Source: a virus. Taken from it: a DNA stretch of 64,000 nt. Position 1 is the first letter of the stretch. Each line of letters begins with the position of its first letter. The translations under genes were made by a program, and so were the position numbers. The notes beneath the pieces were generated by a model, which saw nothing but the letters and a program-made list of their open reading frames with translations, was not told the origin of the DNA and did not search any database. The stretch is from the IMG/VR virus record IMGVR_UViG_3300042868_012782, positions 1-64,000 of that record, one strand, 5' to 3'. This document shows positions 1,170-14,380 of the stretch, in pieces.

Positions 1170-1446
1170 GATATGCGGGAATGTCTTGCGACAAGCTGCA
1201 CTATGTTTATGCCAATCCTATATCTCAACAGCGCACCGATATATCAATTGCTATAGTTCGGTATTGTACCGCGCCTTTTAGGCGGGTTGCATATACTAGG
1301 ATAGCAAGCGAAAATCTGGGAATCGAGTGCTGCAAGCTGCACTATGTTTATGGCCTAAATAACCAGGGGCGGGAATCCTCCCGCCGCCGATGCACATCTT
1401 ATGGAAAGGCTAGCGAGGTGCAACGCCTTCCTTATGGAGTTGTGAT
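1170..1446 (+). promoter_or_regulatory. Leader module 0 (3 GGGAAT-N14-TGCAC sites + RBS)
   Basis: Motifs at 1177, 1318, 1371; GGAG before ATG 1447. Confidence 0.8.
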
Positions 1447-1713
1447 ATGGCAGCAAGATTTGAGTCAATAAAGGAAGTAGAAATCGAGGCATCCGTGTGG
1501 ACCGTTGAACGGTCCGGCACTTACGAAGTCTGGGGCGATGGTGACGAAGTCACCTTCCAAGTCGAACAAGAGAACGTCTACAAAGACGGAGTCCTGCAAG
1601 AGGACTGGACCTCTGTGGGCGAACTCCTGCCACCGATCACGGATGAAGATATTGATATAGATATGGAAGATGTAGAGAAGTCGAGACTTATGGATCAAAT
1701 ATGCGGCCGATAG
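1447..1713 (+). CDS. Small highly acidic cassette protein
   Basis: RBS GGAG; 88 aa D/E-rich; bounded by modules. Confidence 0.85.
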   Translation: MAARFESIKEVEIEASVWTVERSGTYEVWGDGDEVTFQVEQENVYKDGVLQEDWTSVGELLPPITDEDIDIDMEDVEKSRLMDQICGR

Positions 1714-1731
1714 ACGATCGCTGAGTAGATC

Positions 1732-1993
1732 GGGGCGGGGGGCGAAAGCCTCCCGCCTTTTTTCGTTGGTGGTCCTGGGAATTCTGCGGGTGAAGCTGCA
1801 CTATGGTATGGCCATCGCCTGGCGGCCGCGGCCGTACCTGCCGCGCCTAGCGGGTTAAAATTGTGGGAATAGCAAGCGAGAAGCTGCACTATCTTTCTAG
1901 GCGATTTAACCAGGGCGGGAATCTCCTTCTGGCCGATGCACATCTTATGGAAGGGCTAGCGAGGTTGCGATGCCTACCACATGGAGTTGTGAG
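1732..1993 (+). repeat. Repeat module 1 (terminator + 3 motifs + RBS)
   Basis: GGCGGGGGGC-GAAA-GCCTCCCGCC-T6; motifs at 1777, 1865, 1917. Confidence 0.92.
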
Positions 1994-2155
1994 ATGTGCT
2001 CGTCATGCAATGTGGTCAAGATCAACGGAGTCCGGACTCACGAGTCCGGGTGCCCGGAATCTTGGAGGGAGATCAAGGCATGCTCGGCATGCCGAGAAAA
2101 GTTTCGCCCTAAGGCGAAAAACCAAAAGCACTGCCGGGACTGTCGCATCCGATAG
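1994..2155 (+). CDS. Small Cys-rich (zinc-binding) cassette protein
   Basis: Start placed at ATG after GGAG; three CxxC pairs plus HExGCP. Confidence 0.8.
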   Translation: MCSSCNVVKINGVRTHESGCPESWREIKACSACREKFRPKAKNQKHCRDCRIR

Positions 2156-2176
2156 GGATGCGTCGACAGTAAGGCA

Positions 2177-2526
2177 GGGGCGGGGGGCGAAAGCCTCCCG
2201 CCTTTTTTCGTTGGTATTCCTAGGAATCCCGCGGGTGAAGCTGCACTATGGTATAGCCATCGCCTGGCGGCCGCGGCCGTACCTGCCGCGCTCGGCCGGT
2301 CAATATTGTGGGAATAGCAAGCGGAAAGCTGCACTATGGTATGGCTCCTGCCTGGCGGCCGCGGCCGCATCTGCCGCGCTCGGCAGCCTAGCATAGTGGG
2401 AATAACCGATCTTAAGCTGCACTATGGTTATGGGCTAAATAACCAGGTGCGGGAATCCTCCCGCCGCCGATGCACATCTTATGGAAAGGCTAGCGAGGTG
2501 CGATGCCTACCAAGTGGAGTTTTCAT
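2177..2526 (+). repeat. Repeat module 2 (4 motifs; internal 88-bp subunit duplicated)
   Basis: Same hairpin; motifs ~2222, 2310, 2398, 2451. Confidence 0.92.
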
Positions 2527-2835
2527 ATGACCAAGATCCAAGAAATCGAAAACCTAACAGGTTTTATCGGAAGTCTTCAGGATGGCTATCTAAAAGACAT
2601 CTTTGATGATTTAGGACCGATGATAATCGGGGCGATTCGGTCGGACTTTTGCTGTGTGCCGTACAGGGAGATGCAGCAAACAAAAGCGGATCTCCGACTG
2701 GAGATCCAAACCCTTCAGAAAGAGGCCTCGGATCTGAAGGTCCTGTTGTCTGAAGCAAGACGGCAACAGGAACGACTGAAGACAGAAATAGACGATATAA
2801 GGCGAATTGCTGCGACCATCGCTGCCTGCAGGTAA
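2527..2835 (+). CDS. Cassette protein with C-terminal coiled coil
   Basis: RBS GGAG; heptad-like C-terminus. Confidence 0.85.
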   Translation: MTKIQEIENLTGFIGSLQDGYLKDIFDDLGPMIIGAIRSDFCCVPYREMQQTKADLRLEIQTLQKEASDLKVLLSEARRQQERLKTEIDDIRRIAATIAACR

Positions 2836-2852
2836 CAGGCGAAGGTCGGGCG

Positions 2853-3113
2853 GGGGCGGGGGGCGAAAGCCTCCCGCCTTTTTTCGTTGGTATTCCTGGG
2901 AATCCCGCGGGTGAAGCTGCACTATGGTATGGCTATCGCCTGGCGGCCGCGGCCGTACCTGCCGCGCTCAGCCGGTCGATATTGTGGGAATAGCAAGCGA
3001 GAAGCTGCACTATCTTTCTGGGCGATTTAACCAGGCTGGGAATCTACTGCTGGCCAATGCACATCTTATGGAAAGGCTAGCGGGGTTGCGATGCCTACCA
3101 CATGGAGCTAGTG
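2853..3113 (+). repeat. Repeat module 3
   Basis: Near-identical to module 1. Confidence 0.92.
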
Positions 3114-12206: not shown

Positions 12207-12407
12207 ATGAGATATCAAGTTAAGATTGTAACGACCCACACGATGGAGGTGTCTGCCGACAACCGATTTGAGGCGCTAAGGCAGGCCAAACGCCAGTCAA
12301 AGTACCGGACGGAGCTGGAGAGCTTCGCCCAGGTCCTAGACCAAGACGGGTCGGAGTGGACCGTGAAGGAAACGCCCGTTGCCATTATTTGGCAGGGCAA
12401 GGAGTAA
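12207..12407 (+). CDS. DpnD/PcfM-like small protein
   Basis: RYQVKIVTTHTMEVSADNRFEAL; similar to 6591 and 26513 ORFs. Confidence 0.65.
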   Translation: MRYQVKIVTTHTMEVSADNRFEALRQAKRQSKYRTELESFAQVLDQDGSEWTVKETPVAIIWQGKE

Positions 12408-12478
12408 TAAGGTACGCCAGGGGGGTAGGCGCGGTGCATGCCTCCTGGCTATGTGCGTCGACGCAAGGAGGAAGATAT

Positions 12479-12814
12479 ATGTCTCAAGAGCTACTGAATG
12501 TCGCTGAGGAAATACTTCGCAACAGTTTTACTTCGTGCAATTGCTCGCCTATGGTATGCGATAGCACTTGCACTCATGGTAAGCTGGTGTTGGCTGTAGC
12601 CAACGCCAAGAGCAAAGAAAAGGTCTTTGTGGTCTGGGGGGAACAGCCCAGCAAAGATCAGTCTGTCTGTACATATGAGTTTTCTACTCCAGAGGAGGCG
12701 TGCGCCTTTAAGCTGGGGATCGACGAGAGCCTGGGGTGGGGCGACGCCGTCTACTATTTTACTACCAAAGAAGAGGCGCAAGATTACCTAAAGGAGGTCG
12801 GATATGATGGTTGA
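12479..12814 (+). CDS. Hypothetical protein; C-terminal domain paralogous to 17645..17869
   Basis: AGGAGG RBS; VVWG...YEFS...AFxLG...GW shared. Confidence 0.8.
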   Translation: MSQELLNVAEEILRNSFTSCNCSPMVCDSTCTHGKLVLAVANAKSKEKVFVVWGEQPSKDQSVCTYEFSTPEEACAFKLGIDESLGWGDAVYYFTTKEEAQDYLKEVGYDG

Positions 12815-13097
12815 CCAGAAGCACTACCCCAATCTGGTTGGGGAGATCGACATGGCGGGTAGTCGGTGGGAATATACCGCCATTGGAAACTTTGAGCATG
12901 ACACGCTGTTCGTGTCAGTGAGGCTCCAGAAGAAAGTGGGGCGCGTGTGGCGCATGGTGGCTGGCCCCTATCAATTTCATGACGGCAAACTAGACCGCGG
13001 CGAAGACCAGGACGTGACCTTCACCGAAGACTGCATGGTGCGACTCGAGGCTGCTGTGATCGATGCCATGCACAAGAACTGGCCTTTCGACTTCTAA
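12804..13097 (+). CDS. Hypothetical protein
   Basis: AGGAGG RBS; followed by a terminator. Confidence 0.8.
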   Translation: MMVDQKHYPNLVGEIDMAGSRWEYTAIGNFEHDTLFVSVRLQKKVGRVWRMVAGPYQFHDGKLDRGEDQDVTFTEDCMVRLEAAVIDAMHKNWPFDF

Positions 13098-13119
13098 TTG
13101 TCTAGCCGCCGCGGCGATT

Positions 13120-13673
13120 CCCCAGGGGTTACCCCCTGGGGTTTTTTTATGCCTAGTGGGAACCGCGGTACACAATCTGCACTATGTTCTAGGGCTTTTG
13201 CGCCCGCGGCCCCTGCGTATCGGCCGTGCGGAGCCGGTCGACATTGTGGGAATAGCAAGCAAGAAGCTGCACTATGTTATGGGCAGTGCCATGGCGCCCG
13301 CGGCCGTACTGGCCCTGCGAAGCCGGTCGAACTTGTGGGAATAGCAAGCAAGAAGCTGCACTATGTTTTAGGGTTTTGCGTTCGCCGCCCTGCGGGAATC
13401 TGGCCGCGGTAGCTGCACTAAGTTATTGCCGCATCTGAAGTTGCGTTCCGCAAAATTTTTTTGCCCCCTTAAACATAGTGCAGAATAAAAACCCTATTCC
13501 CGCGGCCTGGGAATGGACCCAGGAGTGCTGCACTATGTTCTTGTGGAGCCAGGGGAGCGCGTGGGAACGCTCGCTTTTCCAATGCACGGCTTATGTAAGG
13601 AAAACGTGCTGAGGCCAACAGGGGGTGGTAATCTTCTGGGCCGACATGCACGACTGATGTAAGGGGGTGGACG
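13120..13673 (+). repeat. Extended module 17 (terminator + ~7 forward + 1 inverted motif)
   Basis: Hairpin CCCCAGGGG...CCCCTGGGG-T7; 5' part nearly duplicates module 15. Confidence 0.85.
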
Positions 13674-13880
13674 ATGTGGGTAGTTGAAATGCTGATCGGT
13701 GACGAGTGGGAGAACGTGTGGTGGGATGATGCCAACGAACCGCTCGCCTTCTCTAGTGAGGAGGAAGCGAAGGAGGCACTGGCCGAACATCTGGCCGACC
13801 AGAAGGAGTCAGTCGAGGAGGGGTTCCTCGAGGACGTGGATTCCCCTGAGATGTTCAGGGTACAGGAGGAGGTGGTATGA
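13674..13880 (+). CDS. Small highly acidic protein
   Basis: 68 aa, strongly D/E-rich. Confidence 0.8.
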   Translation: MWVVEMLIGDEWENVWWDDANEPLAFSSEEEAKEALAEHLADQKESVEEGFLEDVDSPEMFRVQEEVV

Positions 13881-14119
13881 GTAGCGTAATCATCGAGAGT
13901 CGGATAAGGCGGGGCGAGAAGGCCCACCAGTGGGTGGTCACAGAGGTAGCATTCACGCCTGGAGAGGGCGGGGTGAACCTCGAGAGGCCGGTGGTACTGA
14001 GCGTCACCGGATTCCAGAAGGTTCGACTGGAGTCAGTTTTCTGGGCCTTGATGGACAGCCGCGGAAAGTACTTCCACCAGGTCATGGCCGCGGTAACGAG
14101 TCGCGAGGAAGCGATGTAG
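13877..14119 (+). CDS. Hypothetical protein
   Basis: GGAGG RBS; ATGA overlap. Confidence 0.75.
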   Translation: MSSVIIESRIRRGEKAHQWVVTEVAFTPGEGGVNLERPVVLSVTGFQKVRLESVFWALMDSRGKYFHQVMAAVTSREEAM

Positions 14120-14380
14120 CAACGTCCGATAATCATCCTTATGTTGCACTGACCCAGGAGGAACAATGGAGTTCAAGCTGCACGACAGATGTTGGTTGAT
14201 CAGGGGGGGAGAGCGCCGACCAGTGCTGGTGTTCTATATCGACGAAGAGTCCAATAGGATCTGTGTCTATGACACACTGTCGGGCTGGGAGGGATGCGTG
14301 AATCCCGACAGCCTGACTTTCCGAGACGATTAGTTGTGAATTCTCTTGAACGATTGGCGAATCTACCATAGGAGGTTGAC

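Follow-up and report, generated by a model that had tools for sequence, protein, structure and literature searches.

The first 64,000 nt of the IMG/VR virus record IMGVR_UViG_3300042868_012782 (G0; 82,770 nt), which form the window analyzed here, contain at 1177-13587 an array of small genes, composed of a head promoter block and 17 modules bounded by transcription terminators. About 25 small genes are distributed over these 18 independent units. Thirteen of the modules carry one shared unit of approximately 252 nt (341 nt in one module and 308 nt in another), whose 13 consecutive copies are 78-97% identical. We propose that the array is made of promoters read by a sigma factor of the phage, and that its shared units recombine with one another, an explanation to which we assign a probability of about 0.6. 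The source of the array is an uncultured freshwater phage with a genome of about 148 kb, and the completeness of G0 is 56% (CheckV). Words of the stretch occur across 17 studies of lakes or freshwater, in 20 sequencing runs, and near-identical DNA is absent from the 50,697 phage records that were searched.

Architecture of the array

An earlier note on this DNA had described about 18 gene cassettes separated by a repeat. We recovered the repeat array at the same place, where a 217-nt core recurs 14 times and a 266-nt unit 13 times with a spacing of 445-835 nt, and the number of cassettes agrees with the 17 modules plus the head block. The features of the array and of its entrance are listed below, with lengths of open reading frames (ORFs) in amino acids (aa).

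1-1014, + strand: head gene; frame open from base 1, 5' end cut by the contig start
1019-1052, + strand: intrinsic terminator after the head gene, a 15-pair stem followed by a T run
1085-1113, + strand: sigma-70-like promoter TTGAAC-17-TATACT, the sole good one at the array entrance
1177-1713, + strand: head promoter block; sites at 1177, 1318 and 1371; ORF 1447-1713 (88 aa)
1732-2155, + strand: module 1; terminator; sites at 1777, 1865 and 1917; ORF 1994-2155 (53 aa, Cys-rich)
2176-2835, + strand: module 2; repeat of 341 nt that includes an additional 88-nt sub-unit; ORF 2527-2835 (102 aa)
2222 (one mismatch), 2310, 2398 and 2451, + strand: sites of module 2
2852-3425, + strand: module 3; ORF 3114-3425 (103 aa)
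3441-3895, + strand: module 4; ORF 3704-3895 (63 aa)
3914-4431, + strand: module 5; ORF 4177-4431 (84 aa)
4455-4990, + strand: module 6; ORF 4715-4990 (91 aa)
5009-5475, + strand: module 7; ORF 5269-5475 (68 aa)
5497-6320, + strand: module 8; ORF 5757-6320 (187 aa)
6329-6785, + strand: module 9; variant leader; ORF 6591-6785 (64 aa)
6807-7514, + strand: module 10; ORFs 7069-7383 (104 aa, DUF7249) and 7380-7514 (44 aa)
7585-8175, + strand: module 11; variant leader; ORF 7843-8175 (110 aa)
8216-8827, + strand: module 12; ORFs 8475-8618 (47 aa) and 8615-8827 (70 aa)
8832-9457, + strand: module 13; repeat of 308 nt that differs in its 3' half and has four sites; ORF 9137-9457 (106 aa)
9470-10054, + strand: module 14; diverged terminator and repeat; three sites; ORF 9719-10054 (111 aa)
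10059-11839, + strand: module 15; seven sites; ORFs 10658-11578 (306 aa, Pfam GP88) and 11588-11839 (83 aa)
11848-13097, + strand: module 16; five sites; ORFs 12207-12407, 12479-12814 and 12804-13097
13120-14333, + strand: module 17; six sites; ORFs 13674-13880, 13877-14119 and 14166-14333

Alignment of 14 units returned a constant order of elements: terminator, site 1, a GC-rich segment, site 2 (starting 88 nt past site 1), site 3 (another 52 nt on), leader, GGAG and start codon. This is the composition that had been read from the sequence before, namely a terminator and several promoter-like sites with a ribosome-binding site ahead of an unrelated ORF. Overall, such intergenic composites, with a Shine-Dalgarno (SD) sequence and start codon at their end, mostly precede ORFans. 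In the alignment the terminator has the form GGGGCGGGGGGCGAAAGCCTCCCGCC-T6, and 13 modules have the same hairpin, GGGGCGGGGGGC-GAAA-GCCTCCCGCC-T6. Terminator-like sites are about five times more frequent than in shuffled sequences (78 versus 15.5 expected). The alignment also reproduces the earlier description of modules 1-12 as near-identical, of module 13 as different in its 3' half and of modules 14-17 as diverged. A small stem that had been placed before the ribosome-binding site did not hold, as neither this leader segment nor the GC hairpin that follows site 1 folds better than shuffled sequences (z-scores from -0.5 to +1.2).

The exact pattern GGGAAT-N14-TGCAC occurs 63 times on the forward and once on the reverse strand of the whole 82,770-nt record, with 62 occurrences at 1177-13533; the reversed pattern, used as a control, gave 0 matches. 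With the GGGAAY version we counted 64 sites in the array. Type A (GC-TGCAC-TATGkT) accounts for 44 of them, and the other 20 belong to type B (GA-TGCAC-AnCTTATGG), which includes the last site ahead of each gene. Each unit has three to seven sites, and the diverged modules 14-17 keep the same plan with 3-7 each. Past module 17, small ORFs continue with no more motif sites. The variant of the repeat in modules 7 and 8 has in addition a sigma-70-like sequence, TTGACT-18-TAAACT, between sites 2 and 3 (5174-5203 and 5662-5691), which is not present in the other copies.

The ORFs of the cassettes are 44-306 aa long (median 84), with one to three per unit. The upper limit is that of the earlier note, which had set the lower one at 47 aa. 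The ORFs are mutually unrelated save two weak paralogue pairs. Among the small genes, paralogy was seen only between 12479-12814 and 17645-17869 (42%) and between 14381-14707 and 16393-16677 (32%). When 25 ORFs were compared with their orthologues in two related contigs (L044 or L045, see below), synonymous divergence (pS) was 0.136 and nonsynonymous divergence (pN) 0.022, with a ratio of 0.16. Because of this low ratio, we regard the cassette ORFs as real genes under purifying selection. Within the array, GP88 (10658-11578) and DUF7249 (7069-7383) are the exceptions among products that otherwise match nothing in Pfam or PHROG in nearly all cases. The roles in host takeover or anti-defence that the earlier note had suggested are not supported by these comparisons. 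Acidic proteins account for 15 of the 25 products, which is no proof of function. A GP88 gene also lies inside the arrays of the relatives G1, G2 and L064, and in the contig L009, where no array was found. The 187-aa ORF of module 8 has homologues that are 31-44% identical in unrelated phages lacking the motif array, with a single chance-level match to the motif in one of nine such loci.

The promoter-like sites and their candidate reader

Relatives with 75-80% identity in DnaE are present in IMG/VR, and two of them are near-complete: G1 (145 kb, completeness 97%) and G2 (149 kb, completeness 100%). Both have analogous arrays with other repeat sequences, at 39-52 kb in G1 and at 138-148 kb in G2. 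No arrays were found in five partial relatives (G003-G007), which probably cover other parts of the genome. The exact terminator and promoter patterns had no match in IMG/VR; close relatives came solely from screening metagenome contigs for the site-2 pattern, which returned three further contigs. L044 and L045 are independent metagenome contigs of sister strains of G0 from other samples; L044 spans the array from the head block as far as the beginning of module 3, and L045 spans modules 7-17. L046 is a short contig with the same units, and L064 represents a fourth lineage with a long array. The repeats of L064 are long and homogeneous, with a terminator nearly as in G0 but with GAAAAA-N14-TGCAC sites. 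Since sequence of L064 occurs as loose ends in three runs that also contain G0, the two phages co-occur. The terminator at 10061-10100 of the window was also seen in contigs of runs X1, X2 and X4, there with flanks of the L064 type (L064 2373-2480). Two related phages with a common terminator and different promoter hexamers are therefore present in the same lakes.

In neither type of site is a TATAAT-like hexamer found at a constant spacing, and the number of sigma-70-like matches in the region is at chance level (13 versus 14.9 expected). What the two types and all lineages have in common is limited to the upstream hexamer and GCAC(T). At the level of the family (G0, G1 and G2), the site can be written as TGrG-N18-GCACT, which occurs on the forward and reverse strands 41 and 1 times in G0, 23 and 0 times in G1, and 0 and 9 times in G2 (8 in the array), almost always inside the arrays. 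Its spacer is strict, with 0 matches at N17 and three at N19. The motif is absent from nearly all other loci scanned, and elsewhere it has one to four copies that do not cluster on one strand. The upstream hexamer changes with the lineage, being GGGAAT in G0 and L046, GAAAAA in L064, GAGACAAT in G1 and GAGCCAAAC in G2, and N14 and TGCAC are constant where it varies. We infer that the sites are promoters, though not for the housekeeping sigma of the host.

As many as four small sigma-like proteins are encoded in the family, with lengths of about 170-210 aa (two of the ORFs are longer if counted from the first start codon); in G1 and G2 they were seen at loci L047, L048 and L050-L054. Two of the four genes are held by G0, and the fourth was not found there:

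30287-30814, + strand: second small sigma-like protein, homologue of the G1 and G2 copies (40-41% in tblastn); no Pfam match
38000-38548, + strand: sigma gene similar to the extracytoplasmic function (ECF) class, third of the family's four; Sigma70_r4 at 31.9 bits, weak r2

The product of 38000-38548 is 57-65% identical to the copies of G1 and G2, and its Sigma70_r4 match lies above the cut-off. This repertoire suggests a multi-step sigma cascade in the family. A search for T7-like RNA polymerase (PF00940) gave no match, but the control matched nowhere either.

The remaining member, which we call sigma-A, is encoded divergently from the head gene and next to it in G1, G2, L046 and L064, that is, in every relative whose contig includes the head of the array. 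Sigma-A is 67-79% identical between lineages, and more than 560 viral contigs encode its relatives. The Joint Genome Institute (JGI) annotation labels relatives of the protein 'sigma24 family'. The Sigma70_r2 match of the G1 and G2 proteins (31 bits) is above the cut-off; region 4 is not detected by Pfam. The AlphaFold model (pLDDT 80) is sigma-like over both halves, and the best 50 matches in the PDB are all sigma-factor chains or RNA polymerase complexes containing sigma, including the ECF factors sigma-H, L and E. Distant low-GC relatives, in which sigma-A is 50-54% identical, keep the layout and have their own motif on the strand that leads away from the sigma gene: TTGAATAA-N12-ACGAATAAT in L159 (17 forward and 0 reverse), CTAAATAA-N12-ACGAATA in L154 (16 versus 1 on the other strand) and GTAAATA-N13-CGAATAAGT in L167 (8 versus 0). 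Downstream of sigma-A, all relatives have ORFs of 301 aa (with a helix-turn-helix (HTH)-like stretch; L047 1216-2121, G1 35367-36272), 165 aa and 729 aa.

In G0 the gene for sigma-A should sit just past the left end of the contig. The head gene begins there with in-frame 12-nt tandem repeats, (ACGGTCGACTCA)n, at 1-132. Contigs of other runs extend upstream of base 97, and the start of the window is therefore an assembly break in the 12-nt repeat rather than an end of the genome. Breaks in this tandem repeat were seen in three contigs (G0, L044 and the X-run contigs). The head protein has an HTH-like C-terminus and no Pfam or PHROG match, and no relatives of the gene were found in IMG/VR. Its homologues stand at the head of the array in L044, L046, L064 and G2, with 16-87% identity and different peptide repeats, and the ORF at the head of the G1 array is weakly similar. 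Despite the divergence of the six aligned rows, the proteins conserve a C-terminal motif, G-x-x-K-S/T-T/S-A/G-Y/N-R. The L046 homologue carries another peptide repeat, ETVIETVP..., in the position of the tandem repeat, preceded by a short hydrophobic N-terminus.

In the mechanism that we propose, the host polymerase would first express sigma-A. This small ECF-like protein, bound to the host core RNA polymerase, would most likely read the sites and fire all units together, with the terminators keeping each unit separate. As sigma-A would have to be made first, the cassette genes would be delayed-early rather than immediate-early, or they may be middle genes, and the early timing suggested in the earlier note is not supported. 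More tentatively, at slightly less than even odds, we propose that the array forms a regulon private to an ECF-like sigma factor of the phage, that sigma and promoters co-evolve across a large uncultured family, and that in the lineage of G0 the promoter was built into the 252-nt unit, which places copies of itself before single genes and is homogenized within a genome.

The alternative that survives best, although we consider it unlikely, is that the sites are immediate-early promoters read by a host holoenzyme, with the housekeeping sigma of a host whose promoters are unusual, an alternative sigma or an ECF factor, in a host-takeover region similar to that of SPO1. Small ORFan genes with strong ribosome-binding sites and terminators are in line with this possibility, as are the sigma-70-like promoter at the array entrance and the low-GC motif, which is readable as TTGAAT-N18-AATAAT, near the sigma-70 consensus. 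The canonical site at 1085-1113, however, suggests that the host uses ordinary promoters, and the sites of G0 instead have TGCAC as downstream element, with no hexamer of the A2/T6 kind at a fixed distance in type B. Moreover, G0 and L064 co-occur, exchange genes and share the terminator, yet their strict hexamers differ. Because of this difference, and of the evidence on sigma-A, a phage-encoded specificity factor appears more likely than a host sigma.

A second alternative, to which we give a little less credit than to the host holoenzyme, is that a phage DNA-binding protein, with the head protein as candidate, binds the sites or their upstream half as an activator or a repressor. Possible models are the stoperators of cluster A mycobacteriophages, or an activator whose partner sigma recognizes the downstream element alone. 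The head gene lies at the head of the array in four lineages (G0 with L044, L046, L064 and G2) and evolves fast (16-36% identity between lineages), as does the upstream hexamer, unlike sigma-A and TGCAC, which are conserved; the missing Pfam region 4 of sigma-A points in the same direction. Against this alternative, no Pfam match gives the head protein a DNA-binding fold, the model of sigma-A is sigma-like across both halves, and the units conserve no other promoter-like element. Each unit would still require a promoter, because every unit follows a strong terminator. Within the reading that we favor, in which a phage sigma recognizes the sites, the fast-evolving head protein could supply or modulate the recognition of the upstream hexamer.

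Recombination between the units

The block of terminator, three promoters and leader would spread and be homogenized within a lineage by homologous recombination, and the same homology would permit deletion, insertion and reordering of cassettes, as well as exchange between co-occurring phages. The sister strains L044 and L045 have the same units in the same order as G0, at 90-97% identity. A search of related contigs for the same repeat with other gene content had been proposed in the earlier note, and it returned one extra cassette in L044, composed of an ORF of about 80 aa and a 341-nt repeat, between the head block and ORF 1447-1713. The flanking alignments overlap on G0 at 1335-1429, a 95-nt tract common to the head block and the repeat, and this junction has the signature of unequal homologous exchange. 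Strain-level identity between G0 and its sister strains differs from cassette to cassette, ranging from 83 to 100%. The 12 near-identical copies are mosaics, as 375 of 1,035 informative site pairs fail the four-gamete test and the minimum number of recombination events (Rm) is at least 15.

The comparison of lineages shows more extensive changes. L064 shares 16 genes with G0 in strongly permuted order, with 33-86% protein identity. Two patches of ORF size are 85-88% identical in DNA between L064 and G0; the ORF of module 11 is 85% identical in DNA, with neighboring genes at 33-46% in protein. In L046 the order is head gene, c1994, c4715 and c3114, plus a gene that is absent from G0, and G1 and G2 share just 5-7 genes with G0, partly reordered. 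These permuted orders, together with the L044 junction and the mosaic copies, bear out the earlier claim that homologous recombination at the repeats alters gene content and order. Four genes, each preceded by a repeat of its own in G0, are grouped in L064 as one unit that follows a single repeat, and thus the unit comes and goes between genes. The repeats of G0 and L064 resemble other copies of their own genome far more than the copy that precedes the orthologous gene, which indicates concerted evolution on a longer time scale.

Tyrosine (PF00589) and serine (PF00239) recombinases are absent from G0, G1 and G2, with positive controls, and we therefore consider general homologous recombination as the machinery. 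The RecA-like protein that the earlier note had attributed to the phage is indeed encoded in the window, and it is a plausible helper:

53481-55583, + strand: RecA homologue (Pfam RecA, RecA_C and LAGLIDADG_3)

This protein is 700 aa long, and its LAGLIDADG_3 match lies in the middle, at residues 284-334, where the insert looks like an intein or a homing endonuclease.

A dedicated capture system of the integron or CRISPR type, with site-specific recombination at the repeats, was suggested by the row of unrelated single genes that alternate regularly with one repeat behind a conserved head gene. We consider this very improbable. In addition to the lack of recombinases, the L044 junction is a tract of homology and not a fixed site, other insertions and deletions lie away from the repeats, and expression signals fully account for the repeat. 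Integron arrays likewise are rows of single, seemingly promoterless genes separated by one type of repeat, but the array of G0 has no integrase and no attC-like site, and each of its cassettes has its own putative promoters and terminator. The earlier likening of the array to integrons or CRISPR is not supported.

The weakest explanation, that the regular order is an assembly artifact of collapsed or shuffled repeats, may draw on the short-read (Logan) contigs of four runs, which break at every repeat and neither support nor contradict the order, but it is improbable to the point of being barely credible, given that L044 and L045 reproduce the order in other samples (head block to start of module 3, and modules 7-17), that position-specific variants of the repeat are conserved between strains, and that long arrays are present in the independent assemblies of G1, G2 and L064, with the same units in L046. 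The single joint that goes back in these contigs, from 7068 to 4998 (side 37), is accounted for by a diverged allele with a terminator after it. Another joint, skipping 2,736 nt (14161-16898 of the window), was seen in contigs of X1, X2 and X4 with only 30-34 letters on the shorter side, and could reflect either a deletion variant or a short repeat.

Several observations weigh against a phage sigma that reads recombining units. With regard to the reader, the gene for sigma-A is not on the G0 contig and its link to the array rests on the relatives; the Foldseek E-values of its model are weak (4e-3 or worse); and its sigma-2 region is almost invariant, yet the downstream element is GCACT in high-GC and CGAAT in low-GC lineages. 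Sigma-A is the best candidate among the four sigma-like proteins of the family, a choice that is itself inferred. No RNA runs are listed among the runs that hold the stretch, and promoter activity, transcription starts and timing are deduced from the DNA. With regard to the units, the order of modules 3-6 has no second assembly and, because short-read contigs break at the repeats, no independent confirmation. The failures of the four-gamete test could partly stem from recurrent mutation. Orthologous repeats of G0 and L044 or L045 are 93-98% identical and pair together rather than with their paralogues, which are 71-97% identical within G0, and inheritance among close strains is mostly vertical. 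Sites are at identical positions in four assemblies of the G1 lineage. Three of four strain-level insertions or deletions, in which single small genes were gained or lost, lie away from the repeats; L045 has an extra 78-aa ORF after module 13, and ORF 12207-12407 is missing in L045 and in run X4. L045 also keeps the order of G0 over 11 modules, and a high turnover of cassettes is not supported.

Comparison with known systems and implications

The closest known counterpart is the promoter-early stem-loop (PeSL) cassette, of which about 50 per genome are found in the hyperplastic regions of T4-type phages (Arbiol et al. 2010, PMC2839356; Comeau et al. 2014, PMC4122927). PeSLs are small composites that precede ORFans and combine a stem-loop terminator with one early promoter of the sigma-70-like kind, with the SD sequence and start codon at their end (PMC2839356). 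Recombination between them leads to insertions, deletions, replacements and shuffling between related phages, and to mini-circles (PMC2839356, PMC4122927). The array of G0 has the same composite of terminator and promoter-like sites before ORFans, ending in an SD sequence and start codon, and similar signs of recombination between elements, with a junction inside the repeat in L044 and permuted order in L046, L064, G1 and G2. Unlike the small PeSL with its one sigma-70-like promoter, the unit of G0 is about 252 nt long and has three or more promoter-like sites that are ECF-like, in agreement with the earlier remark that this repeat is longer and has several sites per unit. Other differences are the 13 consecutive copies at 78-97% identity and the presence, in the family, of a sigma-like gene beside the array. 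The principle is known from PeSLs; the array stands apart by its promoter class and by the probable phage sigma.

The phages also differ. PeSLs are found in T4-type myoviruses, whereas the phage of G0 has a split alpha subunit of DnaE-type DNA polymerase III, RecA and DnaB. G0 also encodes a ribonucleotide reductase, and further genes encode the RecA homologue with its LAGLIDADG insert, a DNA methyltransferase and many glycosyltransferases. The DnaE of the closest cultured phages is at most 34% identical, and none of the 25 best matches is of the T4 type. The N-terminal part of DnaE (PHP and NTPase, 641 aa) and the C-terminal part (finger, helix-hairpin-helix (HhH) and OB, 545 aa) are separated by other ORFs (window 62110-64000; L010 110-4608). 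At 42729-46838 lies an ORF of 1,369 aa without Pfam match, of which the first 90 residues only match a PHROG family of tail proteins. The window has no Rfam families and no tRNAs. In G2, a 'direct terminal repeat' of exactly 127 nt is present at 1-127 and 148980-149106 with 100% identity, and may be the assembly overlap of a circular or permuted genome rather than a true end.

The host-takeover module of the Bacillus phage SPO1, as attributed to Stewart et al. 1998, reportedly comprises 24 small genes with about 12 early promoters and terminators, located in the terminal redundancy. Both regions have small genes (over about 13 kb in G0) in many short transcription units, with strong ribosome-binding sites and terminators. 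The SPO1 module is said to have promoters for the sigma-A of the host and no long identical repeat, whereas the sites of G0 are not sigma-70-like; G0 moreover shows no genome end, as contigs continue to the left.

Phage sigma factors that drive a later gene class are known, such as gp28 and gp34 of SPO1 and the ECF-like gp36 of phiEco32 and 7-11-type phages (see also PMC4331800). As in these systems, a small phage sigma would redirect the host core polymerase to bipartite promoters specific to the phage. The presumed regulon of G0 differs in that it is an array of ORFan genes in cassettes, which carry 64 sites over 12 kb, and in that the family has up to four sigma-like genes. Promoters of the ECF class are of a similar type to the sites of G0. 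The sigma-W promoter is TGAAAC-N16-CGTATA. The resemblance lies in a GGAAY-type upstream element, a fixed spacer of about 16 and a short downstream element rich in C and A; the sequences themselves differ, and G0 has GCACT instead of the common CGT downstream. The hrp box recognized by HrpL, also an ECF promoter, is GGAACC-Nx-CCACNNA (PMC8809351).

Modular shuffling at repeats of terminator and promoter, known from T4-type phages, thus occurs also in an unrelated family of uncultured lake phages, where the promoter class used in the array is probably specific to the phage. The approximately 25 conserved small proteins, predicted to be expressed separately and at high level, form a short list for screens of host interference. 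If the neighboring sigma reads the sites, the family would contain many matched variants of sigma and promoter (GGGAAT, GAAAAA, GAGACAAT, TTGAATAA and others). These would be candidate parts for orthogonal expression and a natural case of co-evolution between sigma factors and promoters, and the array would be a scaffold for the recombination of ORFan genes.

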